A DNA stretch of 64,000 bases from a virus. Shown here piece after piece: positions 26,638 through 35,342 of this stretch. A model generated the notes under the pieces. The model saw only the letters and a list, made by a program, of their open reading frames with translations, did no database searches and had not been told where the DNA came from. Numbering within the stretch: the first letter of the stretch is position 1; every line of letters starts with the position of its first letter. The position numbers were made by a program, and so were the translations under genes. The stretch covers positions 1-64,000 of IMG/VR virus record IMGVR_UViG_3300036790_000551, one strand, 5' to 3'.

Positions 26638-27846
26638 ATGACCAAAGCCATCGGTCCCCTTGTCCTAATTGACGGGCACAATTCATTCATTAGGAATTTT
26701 GTCCGCTCTCCCTACATGAACGCCCACGGCGAGCGGGCCGGCGGAACGGTGGGCATGGTCGTCTCGGTGCGTAAAATCATCAACGACTTCGGGGCCTCCA
26801 ACTGCCTCGTGGTCTGGGACGGCGAGGGCGGGAGCCAGCGCCGGAAGGCCATCTATAGCAACTACAAGGCGGGCCGGACCGTCCGCATGAACAAGCGCGA
26901 GGACGACATGGCCGAGACCCCGGAGGAGCAACTCGCCAACCTCCGGAAGCAGGTGGCGGACGCGAAGGAGTACCTCTCCCTCCTCGGCGTTCCGCAGGTC
27001 CGGTGCGACGGGGTGGAGGCCGACGACGTCATGGCCTACGTCGCCGGGAAGATGGACCACCCGAACGGCTGCATCATGGTGACGACGGACCAGGACATGC
27101 TGCAACTGATTCGGGAGAAGAGCCAACAGCACACCGAGGAGTGTGAATTGCGCTACACGCAGATGCAGCCACATGGAGCGCTGTCGGTTCCGCTCGACCT
27201 CACCGGTTACGACCTTAATTCACCGTTGATGACCAGGTACGCGACGACTAAATTGCGAAAGGACTACTACGGTCTGGTTCGTATCTGCGATTGTCCCTCC
27301 TCGTCTGAGGTGAGGGTCTACTCCCCGGTGAAGAAGGTCATGTATGACCGCAAGACGTTCATCTCAGACTACTCTGGGGTCCTGCCGGAGAACTGGCGCC
27401 TCGTCAAGGCGCTCACGGGAGACTCCAGTGATAATATCGAAGGCGTACGGGGGTTCGGACTGAAGACCGTCGTCAAGTCGTTCCCGTTCCTGCTCGAGAG
27501 GCGGGCGACGGCGGACGAGGTGATGGCGGCCGCCAACGGGCTTAAGGGCGTCGCGGGAAAGCGGCTCGTCGAGGACGAAAGTCGATTCCGTGAGAACCTG
27601 ACGCTCATGGACCTATCTGAACCCATGCTCAGCGCCACGGCGGCGAGGCAGGCGCGCGACGCCCTGCGACACGACCTCGGTTGCCGTGAGGTCGAGTTCC
27701 GCGTCCGCGTGGTCCGCGACGGGGTGTCGTTCACCGGTGACAACTTCGTGGGACCGTTCCGGGACCACGTTATTCGCCGCCGCTGGCTGCTGGGTGAGTT
27801 GTACGGGAAGACCGAAGAGTCCGATGACGGGGAGACGCAAGAGTGA
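26638..27846 (+). CDS. 5'-3' exonuclease / flap endonuclease (T4 RNase H-like) with internal insertion
   Basis: LIDGHN, VWDG, YKAGR, EADD, TTDQDMLQL, ALTGDSSDNIEGV.GFG.KT. Confidence 0.92.
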   Translation: MTKAIGPLVLIDGHNSFIRNFVRSPYMNAHGERAGGTVGMVVSVRKIINDFGASNCLVVWDGEGGSQRRKAIYSNYKAGRTVRMNKREDDMAETPEEQLANLRKQVADAKEYLSLLGVPQVRCDGVEADDVMAYVAGKMDHPNGCIMVTTDQDMLQLIREKSQQHTEECELRYTQMQPHGALSVPLDLTGYDLNSPLMTRYATTKLRKDYYGLVRICDCPSSSEVRVYSPVKKVMYDRKTFISDYSGVLPENWRLVKALTGDSSDNIEGVRGFGLKTVVKSFPFLLERRATADEVMAAANGLKGVAGKRLVEDESRFRENLTLMDLSEPMLSATAARQARDALRHDLGCREVEFRVRVVRDGVSFTGDNFVGPFRDHVIRRRWLLGELYGKTEESDDGETQE

Positions 27847-29291
27847 GTGAACTGCAGTCGTTTGAGGAACTTGGCCGCGGCTACCAAGAGAAGTGTGTCC
27901 AGGCGCTTTTCGAGGACCACTTGTACGCTGAGATGATGGCCGACGTCATCGACCCGGAGTACTTCACCTTCACCCACTTGAAGTCCGTGGTGCGGACGTT
28001 CTTCGACTACAAGTCCCGCTATCGCGAGTTCCCGAGCCTCGAGGTCACGCTGATGCAACTCAAGGAGGCGGTCTCGGACGACCCCGCGCTGCTGCAACTC
28101 GCCGCGGAGTTCGCTAAGAAGATGCTGACGACGCCGCTCAACGGCGACAAGGGCTGGGTCCAGGAGAGTTCGCTTGAGTTCTGTAAGCGTCAGAAACTCA
28201 TCGCCGCAATCGGCAAGTGCCTGGAGCAGGTACAGAACCAGCGGTACGAGTCCATCGCCGGCACTATTCGTGAGGCGCTCGACCGAGGCTCCCCCCGCGA
28301 CCACGGACACGAGTACTCCGAGGAACTCGACAGTCGCGCCGTCAAGTCCGTTCGTGAGCCCATCAGCACCGGTTGGCCCGTCCTCGACGGCTACCTGGGT
28401 GGAGGCTATGAGCGGAAGACGATAACGACGTTCATCGCTCCCACCGGCGCCGGTAAGTCCATGTTCCTGGTCAACGCCGCCTGCGCGCTCGTCGAGCAGG
28501 GCCTCAACGTCCTCTACGTGACGCTCGAGATGGCGGACTACAAGATTGGCCTCCGCGCGGACAGTTGGTACTCCGGCGTCAGCATCGACGACATCCCCAA
28601 GAGAAAGGAGGAGGTCAAGAGCGCAATCGGAGCCCGCGCCAAGGGCCGCCTCATCATCAAGGAGTGGCCGACGAAGCGGGCCACCGTCGACACGATTCGG
28701 AGCCACGTGCAGCGGTTGGCCCAGACCAAGGACTTCAAGGTCGACGCGGTCATCGTGGACTACCCGGACCTCCTGCGTAGCGTGAAGAGTTATGGGGAGA
28801 AGCGGCACGAACTCGAGGGAAACTACGAGGAACTCCGCGGCCTCGCTCAGGAGAGCAACTGCGTCATGATTGTGGCCGACCAGACGAACCGCAGCGGCCT
28901 CGACCTCGAACTCGTCACCATCGGAGCCATTTCCGAGGCCTACTCGAAGGCAACGGTCTGCGACCTCATCCTCACCATTAGCCGCACCCCGGAGGACAAG
29001 CAGAACGGGACCGGTCGCCTCTTCATCGCGAAGAGCCGCCTCGGCTCGGACGGCATCGTTCTGCCCTTCACCCTGAAGACCTCTGCAAACGTACGGGTTG
29101 AGGTCTTCGAGAGCAACACGAGCGCCATCGAGTTGGCCCTCAAGGACCCCGAGACGCTGAAGAGGCACATGGCCCAGTCCTTCGCGGGCTACAAGAAGAT
29201 GAAGGTCCAGCAGGACCTCGATGAGAGGAACGCCACGGAACTCATGAAACTCTCCGAGGTTGGCGGCAGCGTTGGAGGAGCGACGAAGTGA
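27843..29291 (+). CDS. replicative DNA helicase (DnaB/gp41-like)
   Basis: STGW..LD, APTGAGKS, YVTLEM, IIKEWP, IVDYPD, QTNR, KSR.G. Confidence 0.92.
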   Translation: MSELQSFEELGRGYQEKCVQALFEDHLYAEMMADVIDPEYFTFTHLKSVVRTFFDYKSRYREFPSLEVTLMQLKEAVSDDPALLQLAAEFAKKMLTTPLNGDKGWVQESSLEFCKRQKLIAAIGKCLEQVQNQRYESIAGTIREALDRGSPRDHGHEYSEELDSRAVKSVREPISTGWPVLDGYLGGGYERKTITTFIAPTGAGKSMFLVNAACALVEQGLNVLYVTLEMADYKIGLRADSWYSGVSIDDIPKRKEEVKSAIGARAKGRLIIKEWPTKRATVDTIRSHVQRLAQTKDFKVDAVIVDYPDLLRSVKSYGEKRHELEGNYEELRGLAQESNCVMIVADQTNRSGLDLELVTIGAISEAYSKATVCDLILTISRTPEDKQNGTGRLFIAKSRLGSDGIVLPFTLKTSANVRVEVFESNTSAIELALKDPETLKRHMAQSFAGYKKMKVQQDLDERNATELMKLSEVGGSVGGATK

Positions 29292-31327
29292 TTGCGGGAC
29301 TTTCGTTTCGCCTCGACCCCGACTTCATCTCCGGTTTCATCGGTCAACAACCGAATTGGGGACCCATCGGGTACGTTACGTACAAGCGGACATACGCCCG
29401 TCCGCTTGACACCCTCTATCTGTCACACCGTGAGTTTGCGGCCTTCGCGAGCCTCCAGCGGTCGGAGGAGTTCTGGCTGACCCTCTTACGGGTAGTCGAA
29501 GGCACGTTCAGCATCATCCAGGACCACTGCGCCTCCCTCCGACTGCCGTGGGACCCGCATAGGGCCCAGGAAATGGCGAAGGAGATGTACGTCCTGATGT
29601 GGACGTTCCGGTTCACGCCGCCCGGCCGCGGACTCTGGATGATGGGCACGCCGGCGGTTGCCAAGATTGGTGCCGCTGCGCTTATGAACTGCGGCATGGT
29701 CTCCACCGCCAACATCGACGTCGACTTCGCGGACCCGTTCTGTTTCCTGGCGGACATGTCAATGCTGGGCGTCGGCGTCGGGGGGGATACGAAGGGGGCC
29801 GGAAAGGTCCGCTTGGTCGTCCCCGTCTGTGACCCGAGTCCCCACGTCGTGGCCGATTCCAGGGAGGGTTGGGTCGCACTCATTCGTCGGGTCCTCAACT
29901 CGTTCGTGGGGAAGGCCACCCTCCCACTCAACGTAGACTACTCCTTAGTCCGGCCCGCTGGGGCGCCCATCATGACATTCGGAGGGACGGCGTCGGGTCC
30001 GGAGCCGCTGCAGGAACTCATCACCAGCCTGACCACCGTCCTCATGCGTCGGGCCCTCTCAGACAACCCAACCATCACCAGTGACGACATCGTGGACGTC
30101 TTTAACCTCGAGGGTCGCTGCGTTGTGGCCGGTAACGTCCGGCGCTCAGCCGAGATAATGCTCGGGGAGCCCACCGACGACGGCTTCCTGGAATTGAAAG
30201 ACCGGGAGAAGAACGCCGCGGCGCTGGACGGCTGGCGCTGGGCGTCGAACAACTCCATCATCGCTCAGGTCGGGCAGTCGTACGCGAAGGCCGCTCGACA
30301 GACCTCGAAGAACGGCGAGCCCGGCTTCTTCTGGTTGGAGAACGCCCGCCGGTTCGGACGGATGGGACGGGAGCCGAACGGCAAGGACGCGAAGGCCGTC
30401 GGAACGAATCCCTGTTCCGAGCAAACGCTCTTCGATTACGAACTCTGCAACCTCGTGGAGACGTATCCGGCCCACTGTAAGAATGTGACGGAGTACAAGC
30501 ACGCGGTTAAGTTCGCGTACCTCTATGCGAAGGCCGTGACCCTGGTCACGACCCATAACCCGAAGACCAACGCGGTAACGATGAAGAACCGTCGCATCGG
30601 CTGCTCAATGTCCGGCATCGTCCAGGCGATGTCAAAGTTCGGGCGTCGAAGGTTCTTTGAGATGTGCGACGAGGCCTACGACTACATTCAGGCCCTCGAC
30701 GAGGAGTACAGCGGCTGGCTATGCGTTCCGCTGTCCATCAAGACCACGTCCGTCAAGCCTAGCGGGACGGTCTCCCTCCTCTGTGGAGCGACCCCCGGCA
30801 TCCATCATCCCATCGCCCATCGCTATTGGCGGGTCATCCGGTTCGCCAACGACAGTTACATGGTTCCGATACTGCAGGAGGCCGGTTATCCAGTCCATGT
30901 GCTGGACCCAGCCAAGGAGCCGAACACAACGGCGGTTTACTTCCCTGTCGAGGAGCAGAACTTCGAGCGTTCCGAGGATGACGTCTCGATGTGGGAGCAA
31001 CTGGAATACGCGGCCCAGATGCAGGAGCACTGGGCCGACAACCAGGTCTCCGTGACCATCAAGTTCGACCGGGGGGCTGAGGGGCGAGACATCGTTCGGG
31101 CCTTGGAACTCTTCGAGACCCGCCTTAAGGGTGTGTCGTTCCTTCCCAAGGACGACCACGGCTTCGAGCACGCTCCGTATCAGCCCATTAGTCGAGAGCA
31201 GTACCAGGAGGCCGTGGCCAGGCTGCGACCGTTCGACCTAAACGGCTCGACCACTGAGGTTGAGGACAGGTTCTGTGACAGCGATAAGTGCGCGACGCCG
31301 TGGAAAAGTCAGTCGCAACAGGCGTAA
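29288..31327 (+). CDS. nrdJ: class II (B12-dependent) ribonucleoside-triphosphate reductase
   Basis: YKRTYAR, PPGRGLW, NPCSEQ, CNLVE, VKPSGTVS, C-terminal FCDSDKC. Confidence 0.93.
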   Translation: MIAGLSFRLDPDFISGFIGQQPNWGPIGYVTYKRTYARPLDTLYLSHREFAAFASLQRSEEFWLTLLRVVEGTFSIIQDHCASLRLPWDPHRAQEMAKEMYVLMWTFRFTPPGRGLWMMGTPAVAKIGAAALMNCGMVSTANIDVDFADPFCFLADMSMLGVGVGGDTKGAGKVRLVVPVCDPSPHVVADSREGWVALIRRVLNSFVGKATLPLNVDYSLVRPAGAPIMTFGGTASGPEPLQELITSLTTVLMRRALSDNPTITSDDIVDVFNLEGRCVVAGNVRRSAEIMLGEPTDDGFLELKDREKNAAALDGWRWASNNSIIAQVGQSYAKAARQTSKNGEPGFFWLENARRFGRMGREPNGKDAKAVGTNPCSEQTLFDYELCNLVETYPAHCKNVTEYKHAVKFAYLYAKAVTLVTTHNPKTNAVTMKNRRIGCSMSGIVQAMSKFGRRRFFEMCDEAYDYIQALDEEYSGWLCVPLSIKTTSVKPSGTVSLLCGATPGIHHPIAHRYWRVIRFANDSYMVPILQEAGYPVHVLDPAKEPNTTAVYFPVEEQNFERSEDDVSMWEQLEYAAQMQEHWADNQVSVTIKFDRGAEGRDIVRALELFETRLKGVSFLPKDDHGFEHAPYQPISREQYQEAVARLRPFDLNGSTTEVEDRFCDSDKCATPWKSQSQQA

Positions 31328-31342
31328 GCGGTATGATGGGTC

Positions 31343-31579
31343 ATGGCGTACATTCCCGTGGCTCCCGAACTGGCAGAGAAAAGAGCGAGGCTCCAAGAGA
31401 ACCTCATTGAGGCCGCTGCGGCTCTTGGACGAGCGAAGGCCCTCGCCGATGAAATCGGTGTAGAGTTCACTTTCCTGGACCGGACGTACCATCCGAAGCA
31501 ACAGAAAGTCATCGAGGGCGGTTGGGACTACGAAGACGCTGATGACTGGCAGAGTTCCGGTCCTGGGATTGGGTGTTGA
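31343..31579 (+). CDS. WxxS..C family small protein A
   Basis: helix...ADEIGVEFTF...WQSSGPGIGC*. Confidence 0.7.
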   Translation: MAYIPVAPELAEKRARLQENLIEAAAALGRAKALADEIGVEFTFLDRTYHPKQQKVIEGGWDYEDADDWQSSGPGIGC

Positions 31580-31616
31580 TGTGTGGGAGCACATCGGACA
31601 GACTGCTCTAGGGTCC

Positions 31617-31871
31617 ATGACCAAGGACGAGGGCCAGCAGCGAGCCCAGGAACTCTTGAGCCAGGCCGAGAAGTTGGTCCGTGAGGCCCAGGACATCGGC
31701 GAACACTTCGGCTTCGACCTCAACTTTCTCGGTGCCCGCTACGACGGAAGTGATGAGATGTGGAGCGTCACTCGGTTCGAGCATACCGTCGAGTGGTCTT
31801 CGTCCTCTTTCTGTATCGAGGACCTCGGCCCGCAGGACTTCAAGCGTCGGATGGAGGGAAAGAGACCGTGA
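31617..31871 (+). CDS. WxxS..C family small protein B
   Basis: QELLSQA...GEHFGFDLNFLG.RY...WSSSSFC; alternative start 31581. Confidence 0.65.
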   Translation: MTKDEGQQRAQELLSQAEKLVREAQDIGEHFGFDLNFLGARYDGSDEMWSVTRFEHTVEWSSSSFCIEDLGPQDFKRRMEGKRP

Positions 31872-32212
31872 TGGACGATAAAAAGAAGACCGAACTGCAG
31901 AAGGAAGCGCAGTCGCTTCTTAGCGAGGCCAAGAAGTTATTGAATCAGGCAGGAGCGCTCGCTAGTCAGGGCGGCTTCACCCTCCATTTTGCGGGCGGAG
32001 GCGACTACATCCCGAAGAAACTCATGAACCTCGAGTACTGGCGCGCCCTCGCTGTCGAGGAACTCAAGCAGGAGGGAATAGAGGACCCGGATGAAGAGAG
32101 GGTCAACGACCTAGCCACCGACATGCGTGGCGACTGCGACATTCCGTACACGTATCTTGAGTACGCCGATGAGGACGATGGCGACGTCTGGTGGCAGCCC
32201 TCAAGTTGCTGA
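31871..32212 (+). CDS. WxxS..C family small protein C
   Basis: QSLLSEA...ASQGGFTLHFAG...WQPSSC*. Confidence 0.7.
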   Translation: MDDKKKTELQKEAQSLLSEAKKLLNQAGALASQGGFTLHFAGGGDYIPKKLMNLEYWRALAVEELKQEGIEDPDEERVNDLATDMRGDCDIPYTYLEYADEDDGDVWWQPSSC

Positions 32213-32228
32213 GGGGCTTGGTTTCATC

Positions 32229-32694
32229 CATGCTTATCCGGTTAACACCCAAGGAGTGACGTAATGCGCAAGAAAGATGAGCTAGACAAGAAGAACACCT
32301 GCATGTCGCACGCCCACTCCAAAGAAATGGTGTTCGTGCTGCTGAGCCGCGATGCGGCGGCGCCTGTCGCTATTCGTGCGTGGGTCGCCGAGCGCCTGCG
32401 GCTCGGCAAGAACGTCGAAAGCGACGAGCAGGTCGTCGAGGCGCTGGCGTGCGCGCAGACGATGGAAACCGAGGGACGCAAGTGGGTTGGCCATCCCGAG
32501 CACTATCCGTTCGGCATGGGTGAGGAATCGCGGCGGTTGCACCGTGAATACGACCGACTTGTTCGCGAGCAAGCGGCCGGAGCCAAGAATGGCGCAGAAG
32601 TCCGCAGGTTGACTGACGAGTGCGAGGCGAAGGGCATCATCCTTGTCACGGGTGGCGAGAACCTGTGACGTTGGGTGACAACCGGATAAGCATG
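32229..32694. mobile_element. non-autonomous insertion cassette (MIC/MITE-like) with one passenger gene
   Basis: TIRs 32229-32252 and 32671-32694 (22/24 match); GTTTCATC direct repeat at 32221-32228 and 32695-32702; no transposase. Confidence 0.85.
32264..32668 (+). CDS. passenger protein of the cassette
   Basis: AAGGAG RBS at the TIR edge; EMVFVLLSRDAAAP.AIRAW motif. Confidence 0.7.
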   Translation: MRKKDELDKKNTCMSHAHSKEMVFVLLSRDAAAPVAIRAWVAERLRLGKNVESDEQVVEALACAQTMETEGRKWVGHPEHYPFGMGEESRRLHREYDRLVREQAAGAKNGAEVRRLTDECEAKGIILVTGGENL

Positions 32695-32722
32695 GTTTCA
32701 TCTACACGGGAAGGATTCACGA

Positions 32723-33043
32723 ATGCCTATGAAGTCTACGGACAAGCATGAGAAGTCTACGGACAAGCATGAGAAGCACCTACAGACGCTCCTGGTGAAG
32801 GCCCAGGAGGCATTGGACGAGGTCAAGCACTATGCCGTGCTTCACAACCTGGAGTTCGAGTTCGCAGGCCTCCGTCGAGGCTTGGAGGGTAGAGACTACG
32901 GACCCGTCACCCGAGAGGACTTCGGTGGCGAGGACGATGAGTATCTCCAGCGTGAAATCAAGGCCGGCCGATACAGCGTCAAGGTAAGCAGCCTCGACTT
33001 CGATAGCAAATGGATGGGCTCCTGGTCCCCGGGATGCGGCTGA
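32723..33043 (+). CDS. WxxS..C family small protein D
   Basis: QTLLVKA...AVLHNLEFEFAG...WMGSWSPGCG*. Confidence 0.7.
   Translation: MPMKSTDKHEKSTDKHEKHLQTLLVKAQEALDEVKHYAVLHNLEFEFAGLRRGLEGRDYGPVTREDFGGEDDEYLQREIKAGRYSVKVSSLDFDSKWMGSWSPGCG
32731..32772 (+). repeat. perfect 21-bp tandem duplication
   Basis: GAAGTCTACGGACAAGCATGA x2 (KSTDKHE x2). Confidence 0.9.
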
Positions 33044-33046
33044 GCC

Positions 33047-33448
33047 GTGACCGACGATGTTCATGAACCGGGACCTGTCAGACCGCTGACTGCGGTCGAA
33101 CTCCGACGGGAGGAGGGCCATGCGAAGATGCAGGCGCTCCTGGTCTCCCTCAAGGAGACCATCGACGTCATGTGGGACGTCGCGACTGAGCACGGCATCG
33201 AACGGGTCGAGTTCATGGGAAACTACCTCCACTTCGGGACGGACTTCGGGTACGGCAACTGGGACAGTTTCTCTAATCGCTTTGTCAAGACCGAGGATGG
33301 GTTCGAGGCCGCTGTCGGCGGTCCGGTTCTCAACGATGAGTATTGGTCGCAATCCTCCTATGGCTGCTGGATTGATGATAAGGCTCGGGCGTGGATGTGG
33401 GGACCTGACCCTGCGAAATGGCGGAAGACGAGTTACGATGAAGACTGA
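33047..33448 (+). CDS. WxxS..C family small protein E
   Basis: QALLVSL...ATEHGIERVEFMGNY...WSQSSYGC. Confidence 0.65.
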   Translation: MTDDVHEPGPVRPLTAVELRREEGHAKMQALLVSLKETIDVMWDVATEHGIERVEFMGNYLHFGTDFGYGNWDSFSNRFVKTEDGFEAAVGGPVLNDEYWSQSSYGCWIDDKARAWMWGPDPAKWRKTSYDED

Positions 33449-33472
33449 CGACGGCTGCGGTATGATGTCCGC

Positions 33473-34468
33473 ATGCTTCTCATCGGTTCCAAGGCGCTGA
33501 GGCTTCGAGGCATCGACACCGGACGGCCGCCTCTCGACGTCGACGTCATCGCGACCTTCGACGAACTTGGCAAACTCACGCGATGGATGTCGGCCCGCAG
33601 TCGGACGGTTTCGATTCCCCTCTCCGTCAACAAGACGGTCCTTAAGTCTGTTGATGGAACGATAGTTGAGGTCGAGATTGCCTGGCCGGACACCGCGGCC
33701 CACTCCCTCCTCACCGAGGGGAGCGTCTGGGCCCCTGACGTCAAGGACGACTGGTTGATGTCCGCGAACGGGTTCCCGCATCCGTTCGACGTTCAGGTCG
33801 CCACCCTGGACCAACTCTATGCACTGAAGATGTCCCATCGGTACCTGAAGAACAGTCCGCACTTCCTGAAGACGATGCGTGACATCCAACTGATGCGGAG
33901 CATGGGTGCCAAGGTCGTCAGCGCAGACTGGCTGAAGCGGCGTGAACTCGAGACCTACACCTACAAGCATCCGAAGTTGAACGTGATGAAGAAGGACTTC
34001 TTCACGGGCGACGGCGTCCAGTACGTCTTCGAACACGACGACATCCACGTCGCGATGGCTCACTTCAGCGGTAAGTGTGGTGACCCTGTTCCTGCCTACA
34101 CCCTCTACGCTAAGGACGGTGAGCAGGTTAAGAGCGACAAAGTCAAGTTCCTCTCTCTCTCAGAGGATGTTCGCCTCTACGGCGTCCTCGAGGAGGCCCA
34201 GGTCCTGGCCTTGGAGCGCAGCCAGATACCCTTCCGTGGTAAGGTGGAGGCACGTCGGTCGTTCGACATCGCGCTGATGAAGGTCTGTACCAGCATCACG
34301 AGCGGTTGGTTCCGGGAGTATGCCTGGGAGAATTTCGACCGCGTGAACCTGCTCTACGAGAACGACTACGTAGAGCGTTTCTGGAGGGCCGTCGACGACG
34401 GACACGTGAGGAAGATTGCTGAAGCCGACCGACAGGACCCTGTTAGTAACCCACAAAAATTGCCTTGA
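33473..34468 (+). CDS. Pol-beta-type nucleotidyltransferase-like protein
   Basis: LIGSKA.........PLDVDVI (GS + DxD); LKMSHRY; FEHDDIH; EEAQVLALER; CTSITSGWFR. Confidence 0.65.
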   Translation: MLLIGSKALRLRGIDTGRPPLDVDVIATFDELGKLTRWMSARSRTVSIPLSVNKTVLKSVDGTIVEVEIAWPDTAAHSLLTEGSVWAPDVKDDWLMSANGFPHPFDVQVATLDQLYALKMSHRYLKNSPHFLKTMRDIQLMRSMGAKVVSADWLKRRELETYTYKHPKLNVMKKDFFTGDGVQYVFEHDDIHVAMAHFSGKCGDPVPAYTLYAKDGEQVKSDKVKFLSLSEDVRLYGVLEEAQVLALERSQIPFRGKVEARRSFDIALMKVCTSITSGWFREYAWENFDRVNLLYENDYVERFWRAVDDGHVRKIAEADRQDPVSNPQKLP

Positions 34469-35342
34469 CGGCACCGGTTCCGCGTTCGTCTTCGTGAAGG
34501 CCGGCGGCCTGCAGGCCAACGTTCGCTTTCGGTTGCCGAACAACTGCGTCCTCAAGCCCAATGACGTCATGGGCCTCGACGAGGTGTGGTTCGTTGACGT
34601 CTGCCCATCGGACCTGACCGACCCGGCCGGCGGACTTCCGTTTCGGGTCATCGACCATCACGTGACGAACGTCCGTCGATTCGATGGTGACCCCCGCTGC
34701 ACGTTCTCCCTGGACCACAGCGGAACGTCGCTGTTGGCCCGAGAGGTCGGGCTCGTGGGCTTTGACCGCCTAGTTCGGGCCCTGGAGGCGTACGACCTCG
34801 GGCGGTTCCATGACGCCGACGGCATGCTGCTAGCCGACCTCGCCTCGACATACGCCCAGGACGAGATGCTGAATCGACTCGTCGGAAGGCTTTCGAAGTC
34901 TGAGAACCTTTACGACAGCCATCCGATTCTCGATAGCGAGTACTTCGTGGCCCGCGCCGAGGGGGTCGCGGGAATGCGTGATGATTGGGCCCGGCGCTGC
35001 GCCCGGTCTGCCTACGTCTTCATCCTCGATGACAACTATGCCCTCGACGACCGCCGGTTCGTGGCAGCCCTCGCGGTCTGTCCGCCTAACTGGACAAACG
35101 CCGTCTCCCAGGCCATCATGGACCGGGACGACTTCAGGTACTGCGGAGCGGACGTGTCAGTGCAGGTCGCCGTCTGCGTCGACCCAAACGGTGGACAGGT
35201 GAGCCTGCGGACCCGGGACGACGCCGTCGACTGTAGTAGGATAGCCGAGGGCTTCGGCGGCGGCGGGCACCGTAAGGCAGCAGGTTTTCGGACCGTCGGC
35301 GGCACCGGCCTCCGCGGTCTCATTGAGGAGATATTCGAATGA
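34416..35342 (+). CDS. DHH/DHHA1 phosphoesterase
   Basis: H..CLDG, FVD, IDHH, SG..L, SLR, GGGGHRKAAGF. Confidence 0.88.
   Translation: MLKPTDRTLLVTHKNCLDGTGSAFVFVKAGGLQANVRFRLPNNCVLKPNDVMGLDEVWFVDVCPSDLTDPAGGLPFRVIDHHVTNVRRFDGDPRCTFSLDHSGTSLLAREVGLVGFDRLVRALEAYDLGRFHDADGMLLADLASTYAQDEMLNRLVGRLSKSENLYDSHPILDSEYFVARAEGVAGMRDDWARRCARSAYVFILDDNYALDDRRFVAALAVCPPNWTNAVSQAIMDRDDFRYCGADVSVQVAVCVDPNGGQVSLRTRDDAVDCSRIAEGFGGGGHRKAAGFRTVGGTGLRGLIEEIFE

Follow-up and report, generated by a model that had tools for sequence, protein, structure and literature searches.

Small phage proteins with a conserved C-terminal cysteine tail are encoded beside a Pol-beta-fold nucleotidyltransferase across diverse phages

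Small phage proteins ending in a conserved W-x-x-S-S-x-x-Cys tail and a Pol-beta-fold nucleotidyltransferase (NTase) encoded downstream of them are strongly supported by gene linkage as a module of two gene families, in which one enzyme is accompanied by one to five partners. In the present study, we analysed this pair in IMG/VR record IMGVR_UViG_3300036790_000551, an uncultivated phage whose 92.8-kb record is estimated to be ~45% complete; positions 1-64,000 of the record, the whole 64,000-nucleotide stretch that was analysed, are called the window below. Five paralogues of the tail family (copies A to E) lie here where members of the family stand elsewhere, within about 2 kb upstream of an NTase with DUF7277 and DUF7275 domains and on the same strand. 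Copy A starts 2.1 kb upstream of the NTase gene, and a gap of 24 nt separates the end of copy E from the NTase start. The genes concerned are listed below, with E-values from the hidden Markov model (HMM) described in the next paragraph.

31343-31579, + strand: copy A, tail-family paralogue of 78 residues; ends in W-Q-S-S-G-P-G-I-G-C-stop; HMM E 5.7e-10
31617-31871, + strand: copy B, tail-family paralogue of 84 residues; W-S-S-S-S-F-C at residues 60-66, followed by 18 residues; HMM E 1.5e-10
31871-32212, + strand: copy C, tail-family paralogue of 113 residues; ends in W-W-Q-P-S-S-C-stop; HMM E 6.2e-7
32723-33043, + strand: copy D, tail-family paralogue of 106 residues; ends in W-M-G-S-W-S-P-G-C-G-stop; HMM E 1.2e-6
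33047-33448, + strand: copy E, tail-family paralogue of 133 residues from a GTG start; canonical W-S-Q-S-S-Y-G-C at residues 100-107, followed by 26 residues; HMM E 1.8e-3
33473-34468, + strand: Pol-beta-fold NTase of 331 residues; DUF7277 and DUF7275, phrog_2141

A preliminary description of this stretch had reported the five small open reading frames (ORFs) as diverged relatives sharing a C-terminal motif. Their starts and motif sequences proved correct, with all five on the + strand, and their relationship was confirmed by an HMM built from proteins outside the window. The input of this model was 119 non-redundant small ORFs of other phages, chosen only by their position and C-terminal pattern. 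It was observed that the model picked exactly the five copies out of 1071 window ORFs, with E-values from 1.5e-10 to 1.8e-3, the next window ORF reaching 0.28. The tail-family profile gave the same five as its sole matches in the whole 92.8-kb record, with copy E at 4e-14, and four of the five proteins matched phrog_899 (E 3e-5 to 0.02). Pairwise BLAST comparisons among the five were weak, and B-C alone reached 5e-5. A loose regular expression for the motif had about 70 chance matches all over the window; thus the loose motif by itself is not evidence of kinship. A 350-residue ORF at 60276-61325 (+ strand), which ends in W-V-A-S-N-G-F-C-stop, was rejected as a family member (HMM E 3.6), and its ending is probably due to chance.

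The five copies share a common architecture, consisting of a long N-terminal helix, a hairpin (G-x-x-F-x-F), a variable acidic middle and a poorly ordered tail. Within the helix, Q, L and F were invariant in the alignment, and the family profile covers the helix, the hairpin (G-L-x-F-x-F ... Y-G-M-G-G-x-Y) and the tail. In the structural model of copy C, a helix at residues 3-34 is followed by a hairpin (residues 38-46); the acidic middle is inserted and helical, and the tail is flexible. The net charge of the copies ranges from -4 to -13, copy C having -13. No close relative was found for copy E in IMG/VR or for copy C among 50,697 phage records, and a protein atlas yielded solely unnamed viral clusters. 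A fold search with the copy C model returned no significant match, and MenA1, the small partner of the NTase MenT1, was not among the matches; small helical models of this kind are rarely informative.

The linkage between tails and NTase was measured in both directions. In the forward test, 80 IMG/VR loci were found via the NTase, and a strict tail pattern was applied to ORFs within 2 kb upstream on the same strand. The strict tail closed 132 of 1238 such ORFs (10.7%); the background was 0.02-0.06%, with 1 hit in 4061 far ORFs on the same strand and 5 hits in 8519 ORFs on the opposite strand. At least one upstream tail was present in 69 of the 80 loci; upstream sequence is lacking altogether in two of the remaining loci. 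In the reverse test, nine loci in IMG/VR and INPHARED were reached through the tail protein alone, and an NTase gene was found no more than about 1.1 kb downstream in all nine; its background frequency is 715 of 50,697 sequenced phage records. The reverse-test sources were Ralstonia phage RSP15, Escherichia phage nieznany, Erwinia phage Kaldavass, Acinetobacter phage Acj9, Xanthomonas phage XbC2, Pseudomonas phage PHB09 and IMG/VR contigs, and they represent Ackermannviridae, Phapecoctavirus, Straboviridae, Otagovirus and two jumbo phages. These results indicated that the genomic linkage between tails and NTase holds in both directions across phages.

The pairing can also be followed in individual phages. 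The closest homologue of the window NTase, with 48% identity, is the enzyme of Myxococcus phage Mx1, and a 118-residue protein ending in G-W-V-S-S-S-Q-N-C is encoded directly upstream of it. The same pairing occurs in Pseudomonas phage M5.1, and a T4-like Dhakavirus carries five tandem tail copies. At the level of whole genomes, Mx1, CLB_P2 and M5.1 contain both families, with tails solely beside the NTase, and T4 contains neither. Among 185,579 prokaryote species genomes, the NTase was detected in seven; all seven are contigs of metagenome-assembled genomes, and all have adjoining tails. When the neighbours of 98 partly redundant loci were clustered, nothing recurred comparably to the tails.

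The next commonest neighbour was a calcineurin-like metallophosphoesterase of the Ser/Thr-phosphatase type, present in 19 of the 98 loci (e.g., L040:1879-2613). A calcineurin-like phosphoesterase is also annotated near the module in nieznany and Kaldavass, and this link is too weak to call. In addition, RNA ligase and/or polynucleotide kinase genes lie 1-5 kb from the module in RSP15 (L112:7803-8825), Kaldavass (L114:1-2645) and XbC2 (L116:755-3544), a possible hint of a function at RNA ends.

To determine the size of the tail family, 1.84 billion representative proteins were searched exhaustively with its profile, and matches were counted as clusters at 50% identity. The search yielded 1694 clusters at E<=1e-3, of which 517 remained at E<=1e-10, indicating that the tail family is large and phage-borne; it was found only in viruses. 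Among the best 150 family representatives, 146 have a terminal Cys and 142 fit W-x-x-S-S-x-x-C-stop; the four that do not end in Cys have one extra residue each, and the mean charge is -7.7. In the loci examined, Cys is the last residue in 134 of 145 members, and the remainder mostly have 1-4 extra residues. The families to which the two partners belong (phrog_899, phrog_2141 and DUF7277/DUF7275) were generated automatically or serve as placeholders; none has an assigned function, and no link between them is on record. In some tail-family members the motif occurs twice within a single protein (L001:6623-6979; L002:1365-1589; L053:5751-5981; L025:5714-5983), for example E-W-Y-S-S-D-E-G-W-V-S-S-S-Q-N-C in Mx1 and W-L-N-S-S-C ... 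W-Y-P-S-S-C in CLB_P2.

The tails in the window are atypical in several ways. Copies A and C end in Cys; the Ser-to-Cys spacer is longer in copy A than in W-x-x-S-S-x-x-C and is short in copy C (W-Q-P-S-S-C). Copy D has one Gly beyond the Cys. In copies B and E, the Cys is buried under 18 and 26 residues, respectively, an arrangement seldom seen in the family. In copy E (33365-33448 region), the motif Cys is followed by the codon TGG, one transition from TGA, so that stop loss is a simple explanation and the 26-residue extension may have arisen by loss of a stop codon and read-through. The first codon of the copy B extension is ATC, from which no stop codon can be reached in a single step. Copy E also has an alternative start, an ATG at 33128, which has a better Shine-Dalgarno sequence than the GTG at 33047.

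The preliminary description had placed a Pol-beta-like NTase directly after the array and overlapping a DHH gene, and both the gene order and a confident predicted fold agree with this. In Pfam, the NTase matched DUF7275 (PF23940) at residues 115-300 with 210.1 bits (E 4e-62) and DUF7277 (PF23942) at residues 1-80 with 37.9 bits (E 3e-9), the cut-off being 27 in both cases, and it matched phrog_2141 with an E-value of 7.9e-98. An AlphaFold model made with 43 homologues had a predicted local distance difference test (pLDDT) score of 90 and a predicted template modelling (pTM) score of 0.87. Its nearest solved fold was MenT1 (8an4_B; Z 11.2, root-mean-square deviation 3.6 Å over 150 residues, Foldseek E 6e-4), followed by ANT(2'')-Ia (Z 9.7), TglT/MenT3 (Z 9.7), LnuA (Z 8.9) and MenT4 (Z 8.6). 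At the sequence level, a profile of the 43 homologues found no PDB match at E<=1, and the NTase had no match to PF08843 (DUF1814) or PF10127 (RlaP) in Pfam at E<=1.

Previous work has defined four motifs in the DUF1814 enzymes, of which I and II read hG[G/S]-x15-D-h-D with an Arg inside motif II, III reads K-L-x-A-a-x-x-R, and IV reads +DxxD (PMC3985639). The window NTase carries motifs I and II as I4-G5-S6, x15 and D22-V23-D24, with R18 four residues before D22, and G5, S6, D22 and D24 are invariant across the 43 homologues. The fit to motif III is partial: in K119-M-S-H-R-Y-L-K126, K119 is invariant and stands among hydrophobic residues. Motif IV is not reproduced, since the second Asp is absent from R136-D137-I-Q-L140 and likewise from the family consensus T-M-R-D-I-x-x-M. 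Where at least 85% of the other homologues share a residue, the window NTase deviates at Y186F and D187E only. The catalytic motif is intact, and the enzyme is built on the MenT/AbiEii structural plan but belongs to a separate family. An antisense frame of at least 70 residues over the NTase forms clusters in 37 loci (e.g., L108:6085-6537, - strand); this is probably a side effect of conservation on the sense strand.

Structural kin of the NTase transfer nucleoside monophosphate (NMP) to hydroxyls of tRNA 3' ends, aminoglycosides or lincosamides. Our preferred, if tentative, reading is that the small proteins are clients of the enzyme, with the tail recognised by the NTase and a tail Ser accepting NMP or phosphate. 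According to this reading, the NTase would recognise the invariant W-x-x-S-S-x-x-Cys-COOH tail, which would enter the active site, where one of the two Ser hydroxyls would serve as the acceptor. A single NTase would serve one to five client proteins, and their variable bodies may carry different functions; copies B and E, in which the Cys is no longer terminal, are possibly decaying or divergent clients. The client reading is favoured because it is the tag, not the body, that is conserved, because several diverged partners accompany one enzyme, and because the kin of the NTase transfer to hydroxyls. An enzyme with clients appears to fit one NTase, one to five partners and an invariant tail better than a one-to-one inhibitor would.

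The preliminary description had proposed that the Ser or Cys of the tail is nucleotidylated or primes an oligonucleotide. Nucleotidylation of the tail Ser or Cys is plausible, and the role suggested for the variable middles, as adaptors or decoys, is speculation. We also considered a fuller version, namely tag-directed protein nucleotidylation, in which the NTase would attach a nucleotide to, or prime a short oligonucleotide on, the tail Ser-Ser of several clients, and the conjugates would act early in infection, e.g., as decoys for nucleotide- or tRNA-directed host defences. In this full form the proposal is rather unlikely. If true, it would describe a novel post-translational modification that has a dedicated recognition tag and is present across well above a thousand phage lineages.

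Several observations weigh against the client reading. A small upstream partner with a long N-terminal helix is the layout of MenA1-MenT1 too. O-nucleotidylation of Ser has no obvious need for a Cys at the very end of the protein, and the terminal Cys could indicate metal binding or plugging of an active site. In the window, two of the five copies are without a terminal Cys, yet their genes are still open. In addition, the presence, in some phages, of RNA ligase and polynucleotide kinase genes close to the module hints at an RNA substrate. Co-folding of the NTase with copy C (score 0.05, mark 0.32) spoke neither for nor against binding.

The strongest competing explanation, which we consider possible if somewhat doubtful, is a MenAT1-like system; a MenA1-like regulator of a MenT-like enzyme would agree with the architecture just as well as a nucleotidylated substrate. 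The NTase would then act on RNA, e.g., tRNA 3' ends, and the small proteins would be regulators or pseudo-substrate inhibitors. Their N-terminal helix would bind the NTase, and the acidic body and tail would fill the nucleic-acid or nucleotide site, timing or restraining toxicity. Nucleic-acid mimicry would be a possible role of the acidic bodies, and the metal site could be blocked by the terminal Cys. In MenAT1 of Mycobacterium tuberculosis (PDB 8AN4/8AN5), MenA1 is a 7.4-kDa protein encoded upstream of the NTase, and its helix alone, for which residues 1-32 suffice, induces autophosphorylation of MenT1 at an active-site Thr (PMC11375011).

MenT1 is the best structural match (Z 11.2), both enzymes have the Pol-beta NTase fold, and the hG-S-x15-D-h-D spacing with the motif II Arg of the phage NTase is specific to DUF1814 (compared with PMC3985639). 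The small helix-led partner is encoded directly upstream on the same strand, as in MenA-MenT and AbiEi-AbiEii, and the tail proteins, at 7-15 kDa and with a helix at residues 3-34 in copy C, resemble MenA1 in size and layout. The strong acidity of the tail proteins would suit nucleic-acid mimicry, and the RNA-repair genes near the module in RSP15, Kaldavass and XbC2 point in the same direction. However, the phage enzyme has no detectable sequence similarity to the DUF1814 proteins of MenAT and AbiE (Pfam, E<=1), its motif IV is half present (R-D-I-Q-L instead of +DxxD), and its C-terminus carries a conserved helical domain (DUF7275) that is additional compared with MenT. The module is also phage-only, and it has up to five diverged partners per enzyme. 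Its most conserved element, the extreme C-terminal W-x-x-S-S-x-x-Cys tail, has no counterpart in MenA1, MenA3 or AbiEi. The fold search with copy C described above yielded no match that would favour a MenA-like partner, such models being rarely informative.

Two further groups of Pol-beta enzymes were compared with the phage NTase. ANT(2'')-Ia (Z 9.7) and LnuA (Z 8.9), which are second-tier structural matches, transfer NMP to a hydroxyl, as proposed for the tail serines. They differ in being single-domain antibiotic-resistance enzymes with no protein partner, and only residues 1-160 of the phage enzyme align with them. RlaP (PF10127) is an RNA-ligase-associated Pol-beta NTase of phage RNA-repair cassettes (PMC7824862). 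It resembles the present enzyme in being a phage-encoded Pol-beta NTase, and some carriers of the module have RNA ligase or polynucleotide kinase within a few kb; it differs in being without Cys-tailed partners, and the window has no RNA ligase in the neighbourhood of its module. The identification of the NTase as RlaP was rejected, there being no PF10127 match at E<=1.

A second alternative is that the NTase is not what recognises the tails, and that, for example, a host factor, a protease or a metal does so; the linkage would then reflect only co-inheritance in an early-gene block. In favour of this, early regions of phages keep their gene order for a long time. The linkage nevertheless persists across very different phage groups with differing surrounding genes, and in the 98 clustered loci the tails alone recur beside the NTase, the next neighbour being present in 19. 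The presence and absence of tails and NTase also agree at the level of whole genomes. We regard this alternative as quite unlikely.

The last alternative is the module as the preliminary description had drawn it, with three parts: the NTase would write a mark, the tails would be its substrates, and the DHH phosphoesterase would remove it. The tail-NTase pairing in this proposal was borne out by the two-way linkage; the eraser role of the DHH protein was not, its gene being unlinked in about 100 loci. The DHH gene and its surroundings in the window are listed below.

27843-29291, + strand: DnaB-like helicase
29288-31327, + strand: B12-type ribonucleotide reductase
34416-35342, + strand: DHH/DHHA1 phosphoesterase of 308 residues with a TTG start, a distant phrog_4771 member
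Downstream of the DHH gene, + strand: thymidylate-synthase-like protein, then a dUTPase/MazG-like protein

The DHH protein matched phrog_4771 with an E-value of 3.2e-22 and contains V-I-D-H-H and G-G-G-G-H, that is, the D-H-H and G-G-G-H motifs of a DHH phosphoesterase; Pfam DHHA1 scored 24.4 bits, just below the cut-off of 25.9. No tblastn relative of it was found in the phage collection at E<=1e-5. The DHH and NTase genes overlap by 53 nt, which could be taken in favour of a three-part module and which is ordinary phage gene packing. In about 100 other NTase loci, covering 6-10 kb around the NTase, a single phage (L050/L051) had a DHH gene. In this unrelated phage, a strong phrog_4771 DHH gene (L050:7095-7931) lies directly downstream of the NTase and is followed by a DNA polymerase gene. 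The two DHH proteins have 29% identity over 161 residues and share an N-terminal H-x-N-C-x-D-G, and both NTase-DHH adjacencies lie inside a replication and nucleotide-metabolism block. The phrog_4771-type DHH occurs in 123 phage records, mainly Caulobacter, Vibrio, EL-like Pseudomonas and Serratia phages, mostly groups that are not prominent among NTase carriers, and it typically stands in replication blocks. Five complete genomes of DHH-bearing phages contained neither NTase nor tails, and the same models scored in positive controls. With the DHH gene nearly absent from NTase loci and present in phages that have no NTase, its place as a conserved part of the module is rejected, and the three-part reading is very improbable. 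The DHH phosphoesterase is best explained as belonging to the replication and nucleotide-metabolism block, with no relation to the module.

No description of the tail-NTase pairing was found in the searchable literature (full text), a comparative review of jumbo phages included. The module is widespread and yet appears in no searchable paper that we found, and its carriers include T4 relatives and cultivable phages of E. coli, Pseudomonas, Acinetobacter and Myxococcus. What is new in this stretch is the presence of atypical and buried tails, a conserved ORF that interrupts the array, and the comparative test of the DHH gene. An invariant eight-residue C-terminal tag combined with one enzyme makes a sharply testable hypothesis. 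Either outcome would be informative, revealing a new phage protein modification or a phage-borne form of the MenT/AbiE NTase toxin logic, which is one that bacteria use against phages. The extended-spacer and buried tails of the window are natural variants and possible built-in controls for the need for a terminal Cys.

The following ORF interrupts the array between copies C and D.

32264-32668, + strand: ORF of 134 residues, not a member of the tail family or the module

This ORF is far better conserved than its neighbours, with 618 database proteins at E<=1e-3, many of them of equal length and 70-89% identical. No Pfam family was found for it, and a few sources label its relatives 'deoxycytidylate deaminase'. 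Its N-terminal ~80 residues are present in four IMG/VR contigs without NTase, tails or DHH. The ORF is conserved elsewhere without the module and thus lies outside it. Elsewhere in the window, the + strand carries a tRNA-Lys(UUU) gene at 4788-4862 and a tRNA-Ile gene (anticodon read as AAU) at 4969-5046.

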